A DNA stretch of 64,000 bases from Saccharopolyspora erythraea NRRL 2338 (GTDB lineage: Bacteria > Actinomycetota > Actinomycetes > Mycobacteriales > Pseudonocardiaceae): the NCBI RefSeq assembly GCF_000062885.1, contig NC_009142.1, positions 1,103,584 to 1,167,583 of the forward strand, given 5' to 3'. Each line of letters opens with the position of its first letter. Position 1 is the stretch's first letter. A program made the position numbers and the translations under genes. Positions 26,757 through 49,671 of this stretch are shown piece after piece. Under the pieces are notes generated by a model. It was not told the origin of the DNA and did not search any database. It was given only the letters and a program-made list of their open reading frames with translations.

Positions 26757-27330
26757 GGGGCGGGCAGTCGGCGGCAGCGGTGTAGGCGGCATCACAGGTC
26801 CGCGGCCGACTGCCGGGTGCGTCGGCCCAGGCTGCCCTGCGGCAGGTGGCACCCGGTGCTGAGGCTGAGGATGGTGTTGCTCGCCGTCCTGAACCGGTAG
26901 ACCGCCCCGAACCCGTCGGTGGCCTCGATCTCGTGGTCGCCGGGACGGTCCACGACCGGCCTGGCGCCCCGAACCCGTAACCGGCGGTGAACCTCGGCAG
27001 CGACCCGGACTGCCTCCGGCCAGCCTCGTCGGGGATGTTCGCCTCGCGGGTCCACCGGTCGAGGGTCCGGCTCTCGGCCTCGGTGACGCCGGGGACTCCG
27101 CGCAACCGGCCCGGCTCGCCTCCCCGTCGTTCACCCACGAGGACACGCCGAGCTCCGCGGCCCGCCGGTCGCGCAGCTCCTGCTGCATCCGGTCGTAGCG
27201 GTCGCCGACCTCCTCGATGGAGGGGCGTTGCCGCAGCGCGGCACCGTCATCGGGCGCGCTCGCACACCCGGCGGCCAGCAGTGCGGTGAGGATCAGCGCT
27301 GCCGAAATGCCTGCCGTCGAACGCGCGTCG
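26757..27330 (-). pseudogene. Decayed tandem paralogue of the downstream lipoprotein gene (multiple frameshifts)
   Basis: Three different frames each match parts of the intact copy: signal/lipobox LTALLAAGCAS, ALRQRPSIEE..., ...VVDRPGDHEIEATDGFGAVYRFRTASNTILSLSTGCHLPQG; DNA-level similarity of 26760-26900 to 27338-27480. Confidence 0.6.
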
Positions 27331-27337
27331 AGGGGGT

Positions 27338-27850
27338 TTATCCGCCCTGTGGCAGGTGGCAGCCGGTGCTGACGGTCAGAAGGGTGTTCTTCGCGGTGCC
27401 GAACAGGTAGCTGGCGCCGTACTGGTCGGTGGCGGTGATCTCGTGGTCACCGGCGCGGTCGACGACGACCTCCACGGCACCGAAGCCGTACTGGGCGGTC
27501 ACCTCGGCGACGATCTCGACCGCCCGCGGCCAGTCGGCGTCGGGGAGATTGCCGGCCGAGCGCCACGACTCCAGCACGCGGGTCTCGCCGCCGAGGTTGG
27601 GGAAGTCCGCGCAGCCCGCGCTGCTCATCGGCTCGCGCGGGGTCCAGTTCAGCGACCCGATCTCGGCGGACAGCCGCTCCCGGACCGCGCGCTGCATCTC
27701 GTCGTAGCGGGCGCTCGCCTCCTCGATGCTCGGCCGCTGCTGGAGGGTCGCGCGCTGGTCTTCCACATCTCCCCCGGGGGTCGTGCCCGGCCGGCCCGCG
27801 CATCCCGCGGCGAGCACGGCGCAAAGCGTGAACAGAACTAGCTTCTTCAT
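27338..27850 (-). CDS. Secreted lipoprotein (LppA-like family), candidate immunity-type protein
   Basis: [19 protein letters not shown] lipobox; 170 aa; start overlaps the stop of the upstream hydrolase gene. Confidence 0.7.
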   Translation of the reverse strand: MKKLVLFTLCAVLAAGCAGRPGTTPGGDVEDQRATLQQRPSIEEASARYDEMQRAVRERLSAEIGSLNWTPREPMSSAGCADFPNLGGETRVLESWRSAGNLPDADWPRAVEIVAEVTAQYGFGAVEVVVDRAGDHEITATDQYGASYLFGTAKNTLLTVSTGCHLPQGG

Positions 27851-29551
27851 CAGAACAGGTCCCGGATCTTCGAGGGTGCCCACGAGATGTAGTCACCGAC
27901 GCCTCGGCCCTCGCCGCGCACAGTGCGGTCGGGCAGGCCGGCGACCACGGCGGCCATGTTGTGCTGGCTGGTGCTGTCGTCGGCGACGTAACCGTTGTGC
28001 CCCGTGGACTCGCTGAGCTTCTGCCGGCCATCGGGTTCGGTGGACTCCTTGGCGGAGAGGTCCTGGACGCCCTCCATGTGCGTGGGGTCTCCGCCGAACC
28101 GGCCGAAGTCGGCGACCGGGTCGTTGCGCGCCTCGATCCGGTAGGTGTGCCCCTCGGGCACGTGGAGGTCCTCGACGTCGTCGGTGCCGACACCTGGCGA
28201 GCCGAAGACGATCGCGTCGTCCACGCCGTGGCCGCCGCCCTGCAACGCGTATCCGGTCGTGGTCGAACCGTAGGAGTGCCCGAGCGCGGTCAGGTGCGGG
28301 TCGGTGTCGCGGGAGGCGTTGATGCCCTTGAAGAACTCGTTCAGCTTCGCGCCGCCGTTCTCAGCGGCGTCGGACCGGGTCACCGAGTTCTCGTGCCACG
28401 GCGCGTGCTCGTGGTCCTGCGGTGTTTCGTAGCCGATCCAGCTGATCGCGGCGACCTGGCCGCCCTCGCCGTGGCGGTCGCTCTCGTGCTGGGACTGCGC
28501 GCGGAGCTGGTTCATCTGGTGGTCGAGACCCTCGAGGGTGCCGTTCACCGTGCTGTTGAGCCCCGGCGTGAACACCGAGACGTGGTCGGCGGTGTCCACG
28601 TCGCCGACCGCCACCGCGGCCTTGAGGCGCTCTCCGCTGGAGTCCAGCACCAGCAGCTGCCTGGACGGCTGCCGTTCCAAGGTCTTCTCGACGGCGCCGA
28701 TCGACTCGATCTTGTGCGTGACCTCCTCGAGCCGCTTGCGCTCGTCGTCGGAGACACCGCCCCGTTCGATCTCGGCCTTCTCGGCGTTGAGCGCTTCGCG
28801 CTCGTCGTCGATGCGGTTGCGGTTGGCCACGTCGCGGACCTGGGCGGGGATGCCGTCGCGGTTGCCGAGCCAGGCGGGCGGGGCCTTGCGCAGGGCCTCC
28901 TGCTCCTCCGGTGACAACGACTTCCACCACTTGGCGTTCTCCTCCGGAGTGCCGTTCCGCGGGGCGTCGATGGTCGCGGCCAGGCCGCGGGAGTCGCCGG
29001 TCGCGGCGTCGTCGGCGAGCGAGCCGCCGCGGCCGGGGTCCATGAGGTTCCTGTCGGCGTCGGCGAGGACCTTCGCCAGCTCGTCGTCCGCCCGGTTGGC
29101 GCGTTGGAGGACCGTGCGGATGTTCTCCACGATCTGGTCGCGGATGCGGATGCGCTCCTGCTTGACCTGTTCGACCTGGTCCTCGGGCACGTCGTCGGGC
29201 GGTGCGACGTCGCGGACGCCGCCCTCGGCGGTGATCTCGAAGCCGTGGCCCTCGGCCAGGTCGTCGGACTCGCGGAGCAACCGGCGGATCGCCTCCACCT
29301 CGTCCGTGGTTTCCGCGACCGCGCGGCGGACCCCCGCCACCTCGACCACCAGCTCACGCATCACCCGCGTCAGTCCCGCGTGGCTCTGCGCCGCGGCGTC
29401 GGCGGCCTGGCCGCGCCACCCCTCGGGCCGCGCGGAGCCCTCGAGCTCGTCGTCGAGGCCGACCAGCCGGTCCTTGTGCTTGCCGAGGGCGGCGAAGACC
29501 TTCTCCAGCGCGTCCGGCTCCCACCTGCGGACGTCGGAAAGCGACACCATC
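27850..29551 (-). CDS. WXG100-like N-terminal domain fused to C-terminal alpha/beta hydrolase (DUF1023/Abhydrolase_8-like), candidate secreted effector
   Basis: Start [22 protein letters not shown]; WXG-like motif [14 protein letters not shown] at ~residue 55; nucleophile elbow [11 protein letters not shown]; no signal peptide; the ORF-track start at 29679 is an extension. Confidence 0.65.
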
Positions 29552-29864: not shown

Positions 29865-29920
29865 TGCCCACCTCCGGCGGGCAGGCTATCCCGATCAAGT
29901 GGCTCGGGAGGGGCGATTCG

Positions 29921-31030
29921 GTGAATACGGGTAGCCTGCCCGACGTGACCGCCGAGCTGAACCTCACCGCAGATCCCGTCGAGCTCACCGCCGCCCTGGT
30001 GGACATCCCGAGCGTCTCGGGCGACGAGAAGCTCATCGCCGACGCCGTCGAGCACGCGCTTCGCGAGCAGGCACCGCACCTGGAGGTCATCCGCAACGGC
30101 GAGGCCGTGCTGGCCAGGACGAACCTCGGCCGCGGCTCCCGGGTGGTGCTCGCCGGTCACCTGGACACCGTGCCGGTCAACGACAACCTGCCGTCGCACC
30201 GCAGCGGCTCGGGCGACGACGAGCTGCTCCACGGCTGCGGCACCACCGACATGAAGGGCGGCGACGCGGTGATGCTCGGCATCGCCGCCGGGCTCACCGA
30301 CCCGCGCCACGACCTGACCTTCCTGTTCTACGACTGCGAGGAGGTCGAGGCCGAGCGCAACGGCCTGAACCGCATCGAGCGGGAGCTGCCGGAATGGCTC
30401 GACGGCGACCTCGCGGTGGTCCTGGAGCCGTCGAACGCGGCGATCGAGGCCGGGTGCCAGGGCACGCTGCGGGTCGAGGTCCGCACCGAGGGCGCGCGGG
30501 CGCACACGGCGCGGGCGTGGATGGGCGAGAACGCCATCCACGCGGCGCAGCCGATCCTCAAGCGCCTCGTCGACTACACGCCGAGGCAGCCCACGATCGA
30601 CGGCCTGCACTTCCACGAGGGGCTGCAGGCGGTGCGGATCGCCGGTGGCGTCGCGGGCAACGTCGTCCCGGACAGCTGCGTGGTGACGGTGAACCACCGC
30701 TTCGCCCCGGACCGCTCCCTGGCCGAGGCGGAGGCGCACGTGCGGGAGGTCTTCGACGGCTTCGAGGTGACCCTGACCGACGGGTCGCAGGGCGCGCTGC
30801 CGGGGCTCACGGCCCCCGCGGCGGCGGAACTGGTCGCGGCGTCCGGTCAGGCGCCGGTGGCGAAGCTGGGGTGGACCGACGTCGCGCGGTTCGCAGCGCG
30901 CGGGCTGCCCGCGGTGAACTTCGGCCCTGGCTCCCCGACGCTGGCCCACACGCAGCAGGAACACGTGCCTGTGTCGCAGATCCGCCACTGCGCCCAGGCC
31001 CTGCGCCGCTTCCTCAGCCAGGAGGGCTGA
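29921..31030 (+). CDS. dapE: Succinyl-diaminopimelate desuccinylase (M20 family)
   Basis: GHLDTVP, DMKGG, His/Glu zinc ligands typical of the M20 family; ~369 aa from a GTG start; divergent from dapD as in M. tuberculosis Rv1201c/Rv1202, but here separated by the insertion. Confidence 0.8.
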
Positions 31031-45053: not shown

Positions 45054-47045
45054 CTACCGCAACTGGGCGTTCAGGACCAGTTCACGTCCCTGGCGGACGA
45101 CCGTGACCGGCACCGTCGCGCCGACCGGGTTGCGGTCGACCGCGACGATCAGCTCGTCGGCGCTGCCGACCCTGCGGTCGCCGACCCGGATGATCACGTC
45201 GCCCTCGGCGATGCCCGCCGCCGCTGCCGCGCTGCCGTCCTGCACGTTCTGCACCTGCGCCCCGTCGGCGACGCCGTCGCTGACCGACTTGGCGTTGACC
45301 CCGAGGTCGGCGTGCCTGACCTGGCCGGTGCGGATCAGCTCCTGGGCGATCCGGCGGGCGTCGTCGATCGGGATCGCGAAGCCCAGGCCGATCGAGCCGC
45401 CCTCGCCGCCCGAGCCCAGGGTCCGGATGGCGCTGTTGATGCCGACCACCGCGCCGTTGCCGTCCACCAGCGCACCGCCGGAGTTGCCCGGGTTGATCGC
45501 GGCGTCGGTCTGGATGGCGTCTATGACGGCGTTGGTGTCGGTGCCCTCGCCCGCCAGCCGCACCGGCCGGTGCACCGAGCTGACGATGCCGGTGGTGACC
45601 GTCCCGGACAGCCCGAGCGGGGAACCGATGGCGATCACGTCGTCGCCGACGGCGAGCCGGTCGGAGTCGCCGAGCTGCGCGACGGTCGGGTTGGCCACCT
45701 CGACCTTGAGCACCGCCAGGTCGGTCTTGACGTCGCGGCCGACGATCCGGGCCTGGGCCCGGGTGCCGTCGTGGAAGACGGCCGAGACCTGCGAGCCGGG
45801 GGTGTCGGCGGCCATCGAGACCACGTGGTTGTTGGTCACCACGTAGCCGTTGCCGTCGATGACCACGCCCGAGCCGGCACCGCCCTGCGCACCGACGCGG
45901 ACCTCGACCGACACCACGGCGGGCACGACCCGCTGGGCGACCGCCGCGACGGCACCCGCCGGGCGGTCCTCGCCCTGCTCCACCTCGGCCAGCGTCACGT
46001 CCGGGTTGGTCAGCGGGTTGCCCTCCTCGGCGGTGAGCCTTCCGATGAAGCCTCCGACCACGGAGAGCAGCAGCGCCACTCCGGCCAGCGCACCCAGAGC
46101 TCGCGGTGAGACGCGGCGGCCGAACAGCACCTCGCGGGTGCTCAGCAGCGGGCCCTCCTCGGCCTCGGACTGCTTCTCCGCGGGGTCCTCGCGCACCGCG
46201 GGCGGGCCGATGACGGCGGCCGAGGCGGGATCGCGCCACGGATCGCGCTCCGCCTTGTCCTCCCAGAAAGCGGGGTCGTCGCGGTCGGCGGTCGGCGGCT
46301 GCTCGCCGGGGGCGCGTTGCAGCAGCTCGGTGGAGCCTTCGGGGCGGCCGAACGCCTTCGCCAGCGCCTCCGGTGGCGGCGCGGTCTGCTCGATGCCCCG
46401 GGTAGTGCGGGTGTCGGGTCGCGCCGGGTCGAAGCTGCCCTCGACGTCCTTCGGGCGGCCGAACACCGCGGACTGGGCGGGGTCGACCCCGGGGCGCTGG
46501 ATCGGGCGGGGCGCCAGCCGCGGCTGCGCCTTGGGCGACGCCTGCCCGGACCCGTCCTGCTGGGTGGGCTGCGGTCCGGCAGCGGCTTGGGCCTGTGGAG
46601 TCGTGGCGCTGGAGTGCGCGGGCTGTGCGCTCGGGTGCTGGCCGGAGCCGTGCTGCGGAGCCTGGCCGGGGCCGTGCTGTTGCGGCTGGCCGGTCGGTGG
46701 CTGGACGGGTCCGTGCTGCGGGGAGTGTGCGCTCGCGTGCGGAGGCTGGGTGGGCTGCCGCGGCGCGGACCGGGAGTCCGCCGCGGTCGGCTGCGGTCCG
46801 TGCGGGGAGGAGGGCTGCGCTGGTCGGCCGTTGCCCGCCGGTGGCGGTGGCGGGGCGAAGCGGTCCGCGGGAACACCGCGTGCGCCCGGTGCGGCACCCT
46901 GCCAGGGGTGTACAGGCTCGGCAGGGCGGCCGTTGCCCGCGCCGCTGCCTGGCGTCACCTGGTCACCGGAGCCGGTCCCGGACTCGCCGTCGACCGGGCG
47001 CCGGCCACCGGAATCCCGCGCGGGCCTTCCTGACTGCTCGCTCAT
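45054..47045 (-). CDS. htrA: HtrA/DegP-family serine protease with long Pro/Gln-rich N-terminal region, TM segment, trypsin domain and PDZ
   Basis: GNSGGAL catalytic Ser motif, VVTNNHV His region, C-terminal PDZ; N-terminal low-complexity QHGPGQAPQHGSGQHP repeats; start uncertain (47045 or 47111). Confidence 0.8.
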   Translation of the reverse strand: MSEQSGRPARDSGGRRPVDGESGTGSGDQVTPGSGAGNGRPAEPVHPWQGAAPGARGVPADRFAPPPPPAGNGRPAQPSSPHGPQPTAADSRSAPRQPTQPPHASAHSPQHGPVQPPTGQPQQHGPGQAPQHGSGQHPSAQPAHSSATTPQAQAAAGPQPTQQDGSGQASPKAQPRLAPRPIQRPGVDPAQSAVFGRPKDVEGSFDPARPDTRTTRGIEQTAPPPEALAKAFGRPEGSTELLQRAPGEQPPTADRDDPAFWEDKAERDPWRDPASAAVIGPPAVREDPAEKQSEAEEGPLLSTREVLFGRRVSPRALGALAGVALLLSVVGGFIGRLTAEEGNPLTNPDVTLAEVEQGEDRPAGAVAAVAQRVVPAVVSVEVRVGAQGGAGSGVVIDGNGYVVTNNHVVSMAADTPGSQVSAVFHDGTRAQARIVGRDVKTDLAVLKVEVANPTVAQLGDSDRLAVGDDVIAIGSPLGLSGTVTTGIVSSVHRPVRLAGEGTDTNAVIDAIQTDAAINPGNSGGALVDGNGAVVGINSAIRTLGSGGEGGSIGLGFAIPIDDARRIAQELIRTGQVRHADLGVNAKSVSDGVADGAQVQNVQDGSAAAAAGIAEGDVIIRVGDRRVGSADELIVAVDRNPVGATVPVTVVRQGRELVLNAQLR

Positions 47046-47227
47046 CGCTCCCCGGGCATGCGCAATCGACTCAACACCACTGTCCGAGTGGATCACACGT
47101 TCGGGACGCACGCGTCACCGGCACGTGAGCCGCTCGTCCCCATCCTGCACCGGCGGAGGTGAAGTTCGTGTGGCGTTCGGGTGGCCCGAACCGGTCGTGA
47201 TCGCCAGGGGAACGCCGAAAGTCGTGG

Positions 47228-47965
47228 TCAGGGACCTGGAGCAGGCACGATGCGGGGATTCGCGAAGTCGGTGTTGTCGATGACCACGTCGGCGCGGCCC
47301 CGCGGGCCGACCTCCTCCAGGTACAGCGCGAGCGCGGGGTGGTACCGGTCGCGGTGCAGGCGGGTGGCCTCGCCGACGCCCTCGATGGCGACGTCGCGGG
47401 CGATCCCGCGGGCCGGCGAGACCCCGGCGTCGACCTCCAGCCAGATCCGGTAGTCCCAGCAGGCGTCGTACTCCGGGCGGAAGGCGAAGACCGAGTCGAC
47501 CACCAGCACAGCGTCGCCGGCCGCACGAACCACCTTGTCGCGGTGGTCCTCCCCGGTCAGCGGATCGTGCGCGCAGAGCACGACCTCCCCGGACCCTTCC
47601 GGGCCCGCGGGGTCCAGGAGCAGCTCCCGGGCGGAGACGAAGTCGTAGGCGTTGCGGTAGTAGCCGGGACCGCTGATGCGGTCGTAGCCCCGTTCGCGGG
47701 CTTCGCGCCACGGGTTCTTGAAATCGTCCATGGTCGCGCGCAGCGTCGGACGGCCCAGTCCGCGCAGCGCGGCGGCGAGTTCGTGCCCGAAGCTCGTCTT
47801 GCCCGAAGCGGTGAAGCCGTCGATCGCGACCCGCAGGCGGCCGGGCGAGCGGCGGGACACCGTCTCGGCGATCCCGCCGACCAGCGCTGTCCGGGCATCG
47901 GAGGCCGGTGCCGGTTCGGGTTGCCGCCACGTCGACACGGATTCGTACGCGTGCACGCGCGACAA
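47228..47965 (-). CDS. P-loop NTPase, uridine-kinase-like family
   Basis: IDGFTASGKTS Walker A; 245 aa; inserted between rseA and htrA. Confidence 0.6.
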   Translation of the reverse strand: MSRVHAYESVSTWRQPEPAPASDARTALVGGIAETVSRRSPGRLRVAIDGFTASGKTSFGHELAAALRGLGRPTLRATMDDFKNPWREARERGYDRISGPGYYRNAYDFVSARELLLDPAGPEGSGEVVLCAHDPLTGEDHRDKVVRAAGDAVLVVDSVFAFRPEYDACWDYRIWLEVDAGVSPARGIARDVAIEGVGEATRLHRDRYHPALALYLEEVGPRGRADVVIDNTDFANPRIVPAPGP

Positions 47966-48025
47966 GCTAGCCGCGTTCGTGGGCGATTCCGCACACGGCG
48001 GTCGGATGCCGGGCGGGATGACAGG

Positions 48026-48778
48026 TCAGGGCCGCGGCGCCGCCGGCGCGGCGGCCTGAGGCGCGGCGCTGGGGTGTGCCGTTGCGGGCTGAGCCGTCGT
48101 GGGCTGCGCCGTCGCGGGTTGGGCGGCCGACGACTCCGGCGCGACGCTCGTCGTCGTCGCCGAAGCGGGCATGACGACGTTGCCGTAGGCGCCGCCGGGA
48201 AGCGGCAGCGGGCTGGTCGTGGTCGGCAGCCGCTCGTCGTCGGCGGGCAGGTTCATCAGCGCGAGGGCTCCGAGCACCAGGCCGGAGAACACCACGCCCG
48301 CGCCCTGCCGGGTGCGGCGGCCCCTGGCGTCACCGCGCGCGTGCGGCTCGGCCTCCACTCCGTCGCCGCCGAGCGGCGTCGAGCTGCCCAGCGGTTGGCG
48401 GGAGCCGCCGAGGGGTGTGCCGGCACCGAGCACCGCCCCGGTGCCGAACGATTTTCCCCGGGCTCCCGGGGTGAGCGCGACGAGCTGACCGTCCGGGGTC
48501 AGCGCCAGGCCGTCGGGCTGCGAGGGCAGCTCGGCCTGGGACGGTATGGCCTGCAGCGCCTGCATCAGCCGCGGGGAGATCGACGGCGTGTCCGCTGCCT
48601 GCACGGCGGCCCGCGCCTGCCGCTGGGCGGCGGCGTCGGCGGCGCAGGCGGGGCAGCGGGCGAGGTGGGACGCGGCGCGGTCGTAGGCGCTCGGACTGAG
48701 CTCACCGTCGACGAACGCGACCAGCGCGTCGAGCGCGAGGTGCTGCTCCGGCAACCCCCACCCACGCATAACCGTCAT
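48026..48778 (-). CDS. rseA: Anti-sigma-E factor RseA (zf-HC2 type)
   Basis: Start [27 protein letters not shown]; H..C..C zinc motif [14 protein letters not shown]; single TM; ATGA overlap with the sigE stop; the 463-aa ORF-track call is an extension. Confidence 0.75.
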
Positions 48779-49380
48779 TCGGAGTCCTCCCGAGCGTGCT
48801 CGCGCCGAGCTTCCAAGGTGGCCTTCAGCATCTGGCGACCGCGATGGATCCTGCTTCGCACAGTACCGAGTTTCACGCCGAGGGTGGCACCGATCTCCTC
48901 GTAGGAAAGACCTTCCACGTCGCAGAGCACGACCGCGGCGCGGAACTCCGGCGGCATCTCGTCGAGCGCGGCCTGCAGGTCCGGGTCCAGGTGGGTGTCG
49001 TTGAACACCTGCTCCGGACTCGGGCCACCACCCGGCAGGCGGTCGGTGTCCTCGGGCAGCCCCTCCATCCGCAGCCGGGCGCGGCGGCGGGCCATGTCCA
49101 GGAACAGGTTCGTGGTGATGCGGTGCAGCCAGCCCTCGAAGGTGCCGGGCTTGTAGGACGCCAGCGAGCGGAAGACCCGGATGAAGGTCTCCTGCGTGAG
49201 GTCCTCGGCGTCGTGCTGGTTGCCGGTGAGCCGGTAGGCCAACCGGTAGATGCGGTCGGCGTGCTGCCGGACGACCTCGTCCCACGACGGGGGTGTCCAC
49301 GGCTGCTCGACCGGCACGGTCGCGTGCTGTTCGGTTTCGGTCGAACTCATCGGCTGAGTTGCCATCGGCTTTGTTGCCAT
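48775..49380 (-). CDS. sigE: ECF RNA polymerase sigma factor SigE
   Basis: Region 2 [28 protein letters not shown], region 4 [25 protein letters not shown]; start uncertain (several upstream Met). Confidence 0.85.
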
Positions 49381-49671
49381 CGGGCGGGTACCCACCTCCA
49401 TGCGGGCGGCTGCACAAGGGTGAACGTGCGTACCGGTCGCTTTGTTCCTGCGGTGCGTCACCCGCCGGGAGCGGGAGACGCCCGGTTGTGCGTCACCAAT
49501 CTCCTCCGCGCTGGTGAGGAGGCCATGAAAGGTGCCTGAGAGCAGCCTGAGAACCGCCGAACGGGTCGTGATGTGCAGCTCACACCATCGGGCTAAGGGA
49601 CGTCGGGACGGGAAACGGGGGCCTAACAATGTGCCCGCGCGTGTTCGCCGCCGGAGGGCTCGCCGTTAGCC

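Follow-up and report, generated by a model that had tools for sequence, protein, structure and literature searches.

WXG-fused polymorphic toxins in Actinobacteria have been predicted in general terms (Zhang et al., 2012; PMC3482391), and the EatA/TapA1/TapA2/EatI locus of Mycobacterium abscessus has been studied experimentally (Benedict et al., Nat Commun, June 2026; PMC13444075). EatA is a GH183 endo-D-arabinanase with an N-terminal helical domain; it binds two small Tap proteins, its delivery depends on ESX-4 and it is inhibited by the downstream lipoprotein EatI (PMC13444075). Among the Tap-like loci surveyed in that study, α/β hydrolases were the commonest predicted payload; the loci were spread phylum-wide, and the extracellular toxins had lipoprotein or transmembrane immunities (PMC13444075). 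LppA, DUF1023 and Saccharopolyspora are not mentioned in the main text of that paper. Here we describe a locus of similar layout in Saccharopolyspora erythraea NRRL 2338. It lies in a stretch of 64,000 nucleotides (NC_009142.1, positions 1,103,584 to 1,167,583; the whole stretch is referred to below as the window) and consists of three genes that encode, in order, a small helical protein, a WXG-type protein with a C-terminal DUF1023 α/β hydrolase (the effector), and a lipoprotein of the LppA family.

From sequence comparison and analogy, we think it likely that these genes form an 'Eat-like' effector-immunity cassette of the ESX/type VII (T7SSa) pathway, taken as a package of export, attack on the envelope and inhibition by LppA. 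Within this package, export as a T7SS (type VII secretion system) substrate stands on firmer ground than do the antagonistic role and the function in immunity. An earlier reading of the same DNA from its letters alone (the original prediction) is supported overall, once its alternative likeness to LXG toxins is replaced by a likeness to EspA and WXG100 and the two partner genes that it overlooked are added. Because Eat loci have been published, this kind of system was already known as of mid-2026. The window locus would be an uncharacterised example of it, with the DUF1023/LppA pair forming the majority class of a weapon system that has only recently been recognised.

Comparison with Eat-like loci

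Compared by layout, the window and the Eat loci share small helical gene(s), a toxin in which a helical targeting domain is joined to an enzyme, and a downstream lipoprotein. The Tap-like gene in the window is upstream, co-oriented and tightly linked, the conserved N-terminal helical carrier is found with variable C-terminal payloads, and the downstream candidate immunity gene encodes a product whose location suits the target, that is, a lipoprotein for an extracellular toxin. The two also differ. The payload is a DUF1023 serine hydrolase in the window, whereas it is a glycoside hydrolase in EatA, so a target specific to arabinogalactan is excluded here. The window cassette has a single Tap-like gene compared to two in the Eat locus, and the N-terminus of EatA reportedly clusters with T7SSb (LXG-like) domains, whereas that of the window protein resembles EspA/EspE and WXG100. 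Lastly, the host belongs to the Pseudonocardiaceae rather than being a mycobacterium.

A second M. abscessus locus, Mab_0251-0253 (operon 4 of the SigM/ESX-4 regulon), codes for a small helical protein, for an α/β hydrolase that carries WXG and YxxxD/E motifs, and for the lipoprotein LppV; its AlphaFold 3 model is a helix bundle with a projecting hydrolase, and it has been proposed by prediction to be an ESX-4 substrate (PMC13491425). Going by this published description, it is like the window cassette in gene layout. A search seeded with a Rhodococcus homologue returned no named M. abscessus protein and no named mycobacterial species, save one metagenome-assembled genome.

The effector joins a predicted WXG-type hairpin to a serine hydrolase

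The original prediction described a single polypeptide with a WXG-like motif, a helical spacer and a GHSYG α/β hydrolase at positions 27850-29551. The open reading frame (ORF) is real and only the upper coordinate has to be corrected, by 1 base, the ATG beginning at 29550. The protein is 100% identical to the S. erythraea NRRL 2338 entry 'alpha/beta hydrolase family protein / DUF1023 domain-containing protein'. From N- to C-terminus it is made up of a predicted WXG-type export domain, a helical linker and the DUF1023 serine hydrolase, and it is acidic and without Cys. No signal peptide had been seen, and this holds: the maximum hydropathy over 19 residues (Kyte-Doolittle) is 0.81 and there is no transmembrane segment.

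From an alignment of 55 full-length homologues, AlphaFold2 modelled the effector with confidence, at a predicted local distance difference test (pLDDT) score of 89.7 and a predicted template modelling (pTM) score of 0.81. The model runs from a helix at residues 12-39 through the WxG loop to a second helix at residues 48-101, then a β-hairpin, long helices up to residue 291 and the α/β-hydrolase core. The N-terminus is thus predicted to be helical, as claimed, and to form a hairpin with WxG in its turn, the arrangement of WXG100/EsxAB-type T7SS substrates. The stretch that had been singled out as WXG-like begins at residue 42, and in the same alignment of 55, from which all conservation figures for the full-length protein are taken, W45 is invariant and G47 is conserved in at least 90%. 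A level of at least 90% also holds for both residues among 54 N-terminal homologues whose length is atypical; in most of these, no DUF1023 domain could be detected. The linker carries the motif WWxSL...PxWLGNxDGIPAxVRDxANR at residues 208-243, in which W208, W209, L212, P225, G229, G233, P235, R239 and N243 are invariant; this motif accompanies the DUF1023 class.

Family-level matches of the hairpin to T7SS substrates are sub-threshold and recur throughout the family. When each member was scanned against Pfam, WXG100 was found below threshold in 32 of the 55 effectors (best E = 8.7e-5) and EspA_EspE in 15 of 55. EspA_EspE also matched the window N-terminus below threshold (E = 0.054), the Staphylococcus aureus EsxA structure (2vrz) matched the hairpin with E = 0.02, and the N-terminal matches to WXG100, EspA_EspE and WXG100_ESAT6 were near-full-length. 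The original prediction had likened this region either to WXG100/Esx proteins or to LXG toxins. The first likeness stands in the form of WXG100/EspA. The LXG assignment was rejected because no Pfam LXG match appeared at E ≤ 1 or in the per-member scan, and because the host is an actinomycete whereas LXG toxins belong to the T7SSb of Bacillota.

The C-terminus is, by fold and motifs, a bona fide serine α/β hydrolase. Residues 308-485 match Pfam Abhydrolase_8 (PF06259, formerly DUF1023) with 142.8 bits against a curated cutoff of 20.5, and the family is matched by all 55 effector homologues. The predicted hydrolase core has a GxSxG nucleophile elbow, in the stretch beginning at residue 423 to which the original prediction had drawn attention, and a conserved Ser-Asp-His set: G424-H-S-Y-G-S429, D477 and H518 are invariant. 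Their conservation across homologues shows that the WxG and the catalytic motifs are under constraint and not there by chance. We found nothing functional in the literature on DUF1023/PF06259, Rv2079/Rv2542 or Rv2797c.

The small upstream partner completes a predicted ESX signal

The gene just upstream of the effector encodes the small helical protein, and a GGAGGT Shine-Dalgarno sequence lies 6 nt upstream of its GTG. To place it in a family, we used 79 related actinobacterial loci taken from one-genome-per-species contigs. In most of them the three-gene cassette recurs among otherwise unrelated neighbours, with a homologue of the small partner as the gene next upstream of the hydrolase in 68 of 79 and a gap between the two of 8 nt or less in 55 of 56. 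A Y-x-x-x-[DE] motif lies near the end of helix 2 of the partner family (Y in 67 of 69 members, D/E at +4 in 69 of 69), with Y81-G-R-N-E85 as the window version, and 59 of 69 have a central PG turn. Pfam T7SS_ESX_EspC was matched by 40 of 67 partners and WXG100 by 24 of 67, each scanned separately. Against the PDB, the family profile gave marginal matches to PE25, ESAT-6, EsxA and a T. curvata Esx protein, in which YxxxD/E was aligned.

The effector therefore has a neighbour whose second helix carries YxxxD/E close to its end, as is found for EsxAB-type substrates. WxG on one chain and YxxxD/E on the adjacent chain is, at the level of motifs, the bipartite ESX signal of the EsxA/EsxB, PE/PPE and EspA/EspC pairs.

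Over the 150 nt that precede the small gene, we also looked for motifs of the extracytoplasmic function (ECF) sigma factor type. Many related cassettes (L001-L012, L016, L017, L019, L025 and L049) have GGAACC-N16-17-C(G/A)TC at 57-85 nt upstream, which resembles the -35 element GGAACCG of M. abscessus SigM. GGAACC occurs in 16 of 67 upstream regions compared to 3.6 expected, many of these loci being close relatives. An intact GGAACC is absent from the corresponding window stretch (29865-29964, reverse strand), which reads ...GGGCAGGCTACCCGTATTCACCGAATCG... A scan of the locus for sigma-70 promoters and terminators gave nothing useful.

The downstream lipoprotein belongs to the LppA family

Both genes that flank the effector gene share 1 nt with it, in TGATG junctions. 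The downstream one encodes a lipoprotein that passes the curated threshold of Pfam LppA (PF16708). It shares this family and its fold with M. tuberculosis LppA (PDB 2V7S; Grana et al., 2010), at about 20% identity. LppA homologues occur in 76 of the 79 loci, usually immediately downstream of the hydrolase and often in 2-4 copies, and most have a lipobox. That an enzyme without a signal peptide has a conserved extracytoplasmic partner is, of the in-silico evidence, what argues most strongly for its export and for an action outside the membrane. By position and by analogy with EatI, LppA is a candidate immunity or inhibitor protein of the hydrolase.

In the window, a second LppA-like copy follows that is frameshifted, either as a pseudogene or through sequencing errors. 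Hidden Markov model (HMM) matches to it fall in three overlapping ORFs, and tblastn recovered it in pieces (residues 31-103 in frame -3, 89-125 in frame -2 and 100-169 in frame -1). The orthologous second copies are intact in other Saccharopolyspora. These paralogues have no signal peptide or lipobox within the ORF and keep C80 and C164-H165 (L002:8428-8919, L003:8399-8890, L004:10003-10482, L005:10002-10481, L007:10162-10611 and others). In L004, L005 and L007, the signal-peptide-less LppA comes after an additional hydrolase copy, which lacks a small partner for itself. Such an LppA may be a cytoplasmic version that, for example, neutralises the enzyme before export.

The carrier and partner are reused with other C-termini and other lipoproteins

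The original prediction held that homologues with swapped C-terminal domains would be a hallmark of polymorphic toxins, and such homologues were found. A phmmer search with residues 1-170 of the effector against 1.84 billion representative proteins (E ≤ 1e-3) returned 275 representative homologues. From the best 150 of these 275 matches we took the part beyond residue 175 and clustered it. DUF1023 was by far the commonest class among them (77 representatives), and DUF6973 came second (15). The others fell into at least five more recurrent classes, apart from about 20 singletons that may in part be fragments. In the 54 members of atypical length, Pfam recognised DUF6973 in 15 and a calpain-type protease, DUF2599, DUF6571 and DUF2515 once each. 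The N-terminal 170 residues are thus found on at least six C-terminal domains besides DUF1023.

We then inspected the context of five alternative classes (L081, L083, L084, L085 and L086). In all five, a gene of 99-125 codons that matches the small-partner HMM (E of 1e-22 to 1e-33) lies upstream of the effector; in four it shares one base with the effector start, and in the remaining one it stops a few bases short of that start. The downstream gene codes, in all five, for a lipoprotein whose lipobox is clear, and these lipoproteins are unrelated to LppA and to one another. Going by these sequences, this is a polymorphic effector family, in which the small partner and the WXG-type carrier are constant and the payload and its private lipoprotein vary. 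Since carrier and partner are reused with varied C-termini and lipoproteins, the window gene is the commonest variant of such a family.

The same data bear on what LppA does. The enzyme could deacylate lipoproteins, so that LppA would be its substrate, or LppA could be a receptor or activator that positions the enzyme at the membrane. We regard this as quite unlikely. Every alternative class inspected has a different downstream lipoprotein, and class-specific lipoproteins fit cognate neutralisers better than a common substrate. In addition, the characterised analogue EatI is a lipoprotein inhibitor that binds tightly (PMC13444075).

The second commonest payload, DUF6973 (PF22322), is present in L081:5001-6218 and in 14 other representatives (P0205, P0209, P0224 and others). 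It has conserved H/D-rich motifs, for instance GHRDAFRHTYW...HE...DMHNNEVGR, and the effector is followed by its own lipoprotein of 161 aa. Nothing functional was found in the literature on DUF6973.

Features of the locus

The features are collected in Table 1. The base composition of the window is high in GC (about 72%). Elsewhere in it, at 45057-49665 on the reverse strand, ORF tails and gene order point to apparent genes for an ECF sigma factor and for an HtrA-like PDZ protease, which would match the conserved actinobacterial sigE-rseA-htrA neighbourhood.

Table 1. Positions of the cassette genes, effector domains and second LppA-like copy in the window.
Feature	Position	Strand	Details
Small helical partner, 104 aa	29550-29864	(-)	GTG start 29864, stop 29552-29550; Tap/EspC/WXG100-like
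Effector gene, 566 aa	27850-29550	(-)	ATG 29550-29548, stop 27852-27850
Effector, predicted WXG-type helix-turn-helix hairpin, aa 1-101	29248-29550	(-)	WxG is W45-R-G47 at 29410-29418
Effector, predicted β-hairpin and helical linker, aa 102-295	28666-29247	(-)	AlphaFold2 secondary structure
Effector, α/β-hydrolase catalytic domain, aa 296-540	27931-28665	(-)	Contains putative triad Ser426 (28273-28275), Asp477 (28120-28122), His518 (27997-27999)
LppA-family lipoprotein, 170 aa	27338-27850	(-)	Signal peptide, lipobox Cys17; ATG overlaps hydrolase stop by 1 nt
Second LppA-like copy, frameshifted	26834-27251	(-)	Pseudogene or sequencing errors

Genomic context and alternative readings

Flanking ORFs were chosen with a crude gene caller based on GC content at third codon positions, which made some miscalls, including in the target region, and served solely for this choice. 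The cassette lies between dapE and dapD only in Saccharopolyspora (13 species/loci, with one or two hydrolase and LppA modules). Flanks are heterogeneous in other genera, among them Kibdelosporangium, Actinokineospora, Amycolatopsis, Knoellia, Cellulomonas and Rhodococcus. An enrichment analysis of Pfam families in the neighbourhoods found no conserved neighbour beyond the cassette and no core ESX genes. In 4 of 66 loci, EspG/PPE genes occur no more than two flanking genes away from the cassette, and EspG is adjoined there by PPE-like and DUF3558 genes; this is a minority of loci, yet the frequency of EspG is far above expectation for such rare genes. S. erythraea NRRL 2338 itself has two ESX-4-like clusters in the list of Newton-Foot et al. 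(PMC4791881).

The PPE-like, EspG and DUF3558 genes lie at L023:1639-3502, L061:410-3261, L065:4527-5336 and L042:6944-7759. Their clustering suggests small islands of T7SS substrates. DUF3558 lipoproteins have also been noted as enriched in the M. abscessus SigM regulon.

A number of observations weigh against an exported antagonistic effector. Some of them concern export. The effector N-terminus scores 15.9 bits with WXG100 (PF06013; E = 0.016) against a cutoff of 27.3, and 21 bits with NCBIfam WXG100_ESAT6 (TIGR03930; E = 2.9e-4) against a cutoff of 44.85. Because it falls below the curated PF06013 cutoff, we label it WXG100-like, at superfamily level, and not a PF06013 member. The window copy of the small partner has no Pfam match by itself, no second cassette or ESX gene was detected across the 64-kb window, and most related loci lack an ESX neighbour. 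Sub-threshold scores and the lack of adjoining T7SS genes would both suit a cytoplasmic α/β hydrolase, in which the helical N-terminus is a coiled-coil or oligomerisation domain and WxG and the neighbouring genes are coincidental. We consider this very improbable. The conservation of W45 and G47 extends across divergent classes, nearly all partners carry YxxxD/E, the EspC, WXG100 and EspA matches are family-wide, the conserved partner is a lipoprotein, and EspG/PPE genes are enriched nearby.

The remaining observations concern the role of the enzyme after export. The syntenic dapE-dapD position in the 13 Saccharopolyspora species looks vertically inherited and housekeeping-like, and the dominance of DUF1023 in the carrier family is compatible with a physiological rather than an antagonistic role. 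The second, signal-peptide-less LppA is unexplained by a purely extracytoplasmic immunity model. The main rival is self-directed remodelling: the hydrolase would take the same export route and remodel the envelope of the producer itself, for example in development, conjugation or stress, and LppA would be a regulator or docking partner. The Saccharopolyspora synteny and the prevalence of DUF1023 both favour this rival, as does the upstream ECF-type motif of many related cassettes, which suggests regulation by stress or contact. On the other side are the reuse of carrier and partner with unrelated C-termini, each with a private lipoprotein, the multi-copy, orphan and pseudogenised LppA genes, and the report that M. 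tuberculosis lppA/lppB are hotspots of recombination and selection (PMC4770551). Such polymorphism, copy pattern and hotspots characterise the evolution of toxins and their immunities, not that of a housekeeping enzyme and its regulator, and for this reason we think a self-directed role unlikely. Variation in LppA copy number, tandem duplications of hydrolase and LppA, and orphan or pseudogenised LppA genes are likewise hallmarks of immunity genes.

Housekeeping neighbourhoods shared by all homologues had been named in the original prediction as something that would speak against it. The dapD/dapE neighbours are confined to Saccharopolyspora and contexts elsewhere are unrelated. The idea that the gene is housekeeping because it lies beside dapD and dapE was rejected on the ground that this synteny is limited to one genus.

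Proposed mechanism and relation to other systems

Under an Eat-like mechanism, the small YxxxE protein would pair with the N-terminal WXG hairpin of the effector to form a four-helix bundle that presents WxG and YxxxE. This signal would direct the pair to an ESX-4-like machine, of which S. erythraea has two, and the folded hydrolase would be exported without a signal peptide. Outside the membrane, the putative Ser426-Asp477-His518 triad would cleave an ester-type bond in an envelope component of neighbouring actinobacteria, our best guess for the substrate being an ester of a lipid or of the wall. The target should be a component common to actinobacterial envelopes, since members of the family are found far beyond the Mycobacteriales, Saccharopolyspora, Knoellia and Cellulomonas being examples. 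LppA on the outer face of the producer membrane would bind and inhibit the hydrolase, which would protect the producer and its kin.

Parts of this arrangement are seen elsewhere. EspA/EspC and EspE/EspF of M. tuberculosis ESX-1 are like the window pair in having WxG on one partner and YxxxD/E on the other, a similarity at the level of Pfam families, but gene order is reversed in EspA/EspC and EspA has no enzymatic C-terminus or lipoprotein partner. LipY is a PE-domain lipase and an ESX-5 substrate, with YxxxD/E in cis and a catalytic domain of the hormone-sensitive-lipase type. Like the window effector, LipY and the PE-PPE serine-hydrolase proteins fuse a helical T7SS targeting domain to an α/β-hydrolase; unlike it, LipY has no dedicated lipoprotein partner. 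The Tle/Tli pairs of the type VI secretion system are lipase-lipoprotein immunity pairs. The S. aureus lipase toxins TslA (with TilA) and TslM, which are substrates of T7SSb, are secreted α/β-hydrolases that act on the envelope (PMC13560087; Garrett, 2023), as we propose for the window effector. Both TslA/TilA and Tle/Tli have extracytoplasmic lipoprotein immunities in multiple tandem copies, which may be compared with the LppA copies of the window. TslA/TslM and Tle differ from the window in secretion apparatus, in domain order (reversed in TslA/TslM) and in the families of hydrolase and immunity protein.

LppA in the M. tuberculosis complex and significance

M. tuberculosis LppA has been described as confined to pathogenic mycobacteria, whereas we find the family to be widespread in Actinomycetota and linked to DUF1023 effectors. 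It is present in non-pathogenic Mycolicibacterium, for example in M. fortuitum (L088, 5001-5738), sometimes as an orphan, and widely in other actinomycetes, so Pfam's description of it as a 'Lipoprotein confined to pathogenic Mycobacterium' no longer holds. Some LppA-family genes have no DUF1023 gene nearby.

In M. microti (CP010333.1; L087, 3915-7402), LppA and LppB directly follow an Abhydrolase_8 gene of 403 aa that covers only positions 82-483 of the family HMM. A WXG piece (GTDWEGQAAA) lies just upstream of this hydrolase in another reading frame and is preceded by an ORF of 104 aa with AARRYAGQD (YxxxD); the locus adjoins aroF/K/B/D. We take these genes to be Rv2541-Rv2544. With its WXG piece detached and its hydrolase short at the N-terminus, the effector of the M. 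tuberculosis complex appears to be split by a frameshift, while both lipoprotein genes persist. In M. tuberculosis, lppA and lppB are reported to be hotspots of recombination and selection (PMC4770551). It is quite possible, if somewhat less than probable, that the LppA family as a whole consists of dedicated immunity proteins of DUF1023 ESX effectors across Actinomycetota, M. tuberculosis LppA and LppB included.

Interbacterial antagonism by T7SSa was demonstrated only in 2026, with a single mycobacterial arabinanase toxin, and the α/β-hydrolase payload class has no characterised member or assigned immunity family. The locus described here is a tractable example in a well-studied industrial actinomycete, and through it this payload class is linked to DUF1023 and LppA, two orphan families of Pfam. 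The comparison further points to carrier and partner being combined, as one module, with seven or more payloads that each have a lipoprotein of their own, the contexts having been inspected for five alternative classes. If our reading is right, DUF1023 would be a widespread family of antibacterial envelope esterases, and two immunity genes would have persisted and diversified in the M. tuberculosis complex after the effector was split. If the LppA proteins are immunity factors, M. tuberculosis LppA and LppB, with a structure solved in 2008-2010, would gain a testable function, and the effectors would lead to a conserved target in the envelope that could be of antibacterial interest.

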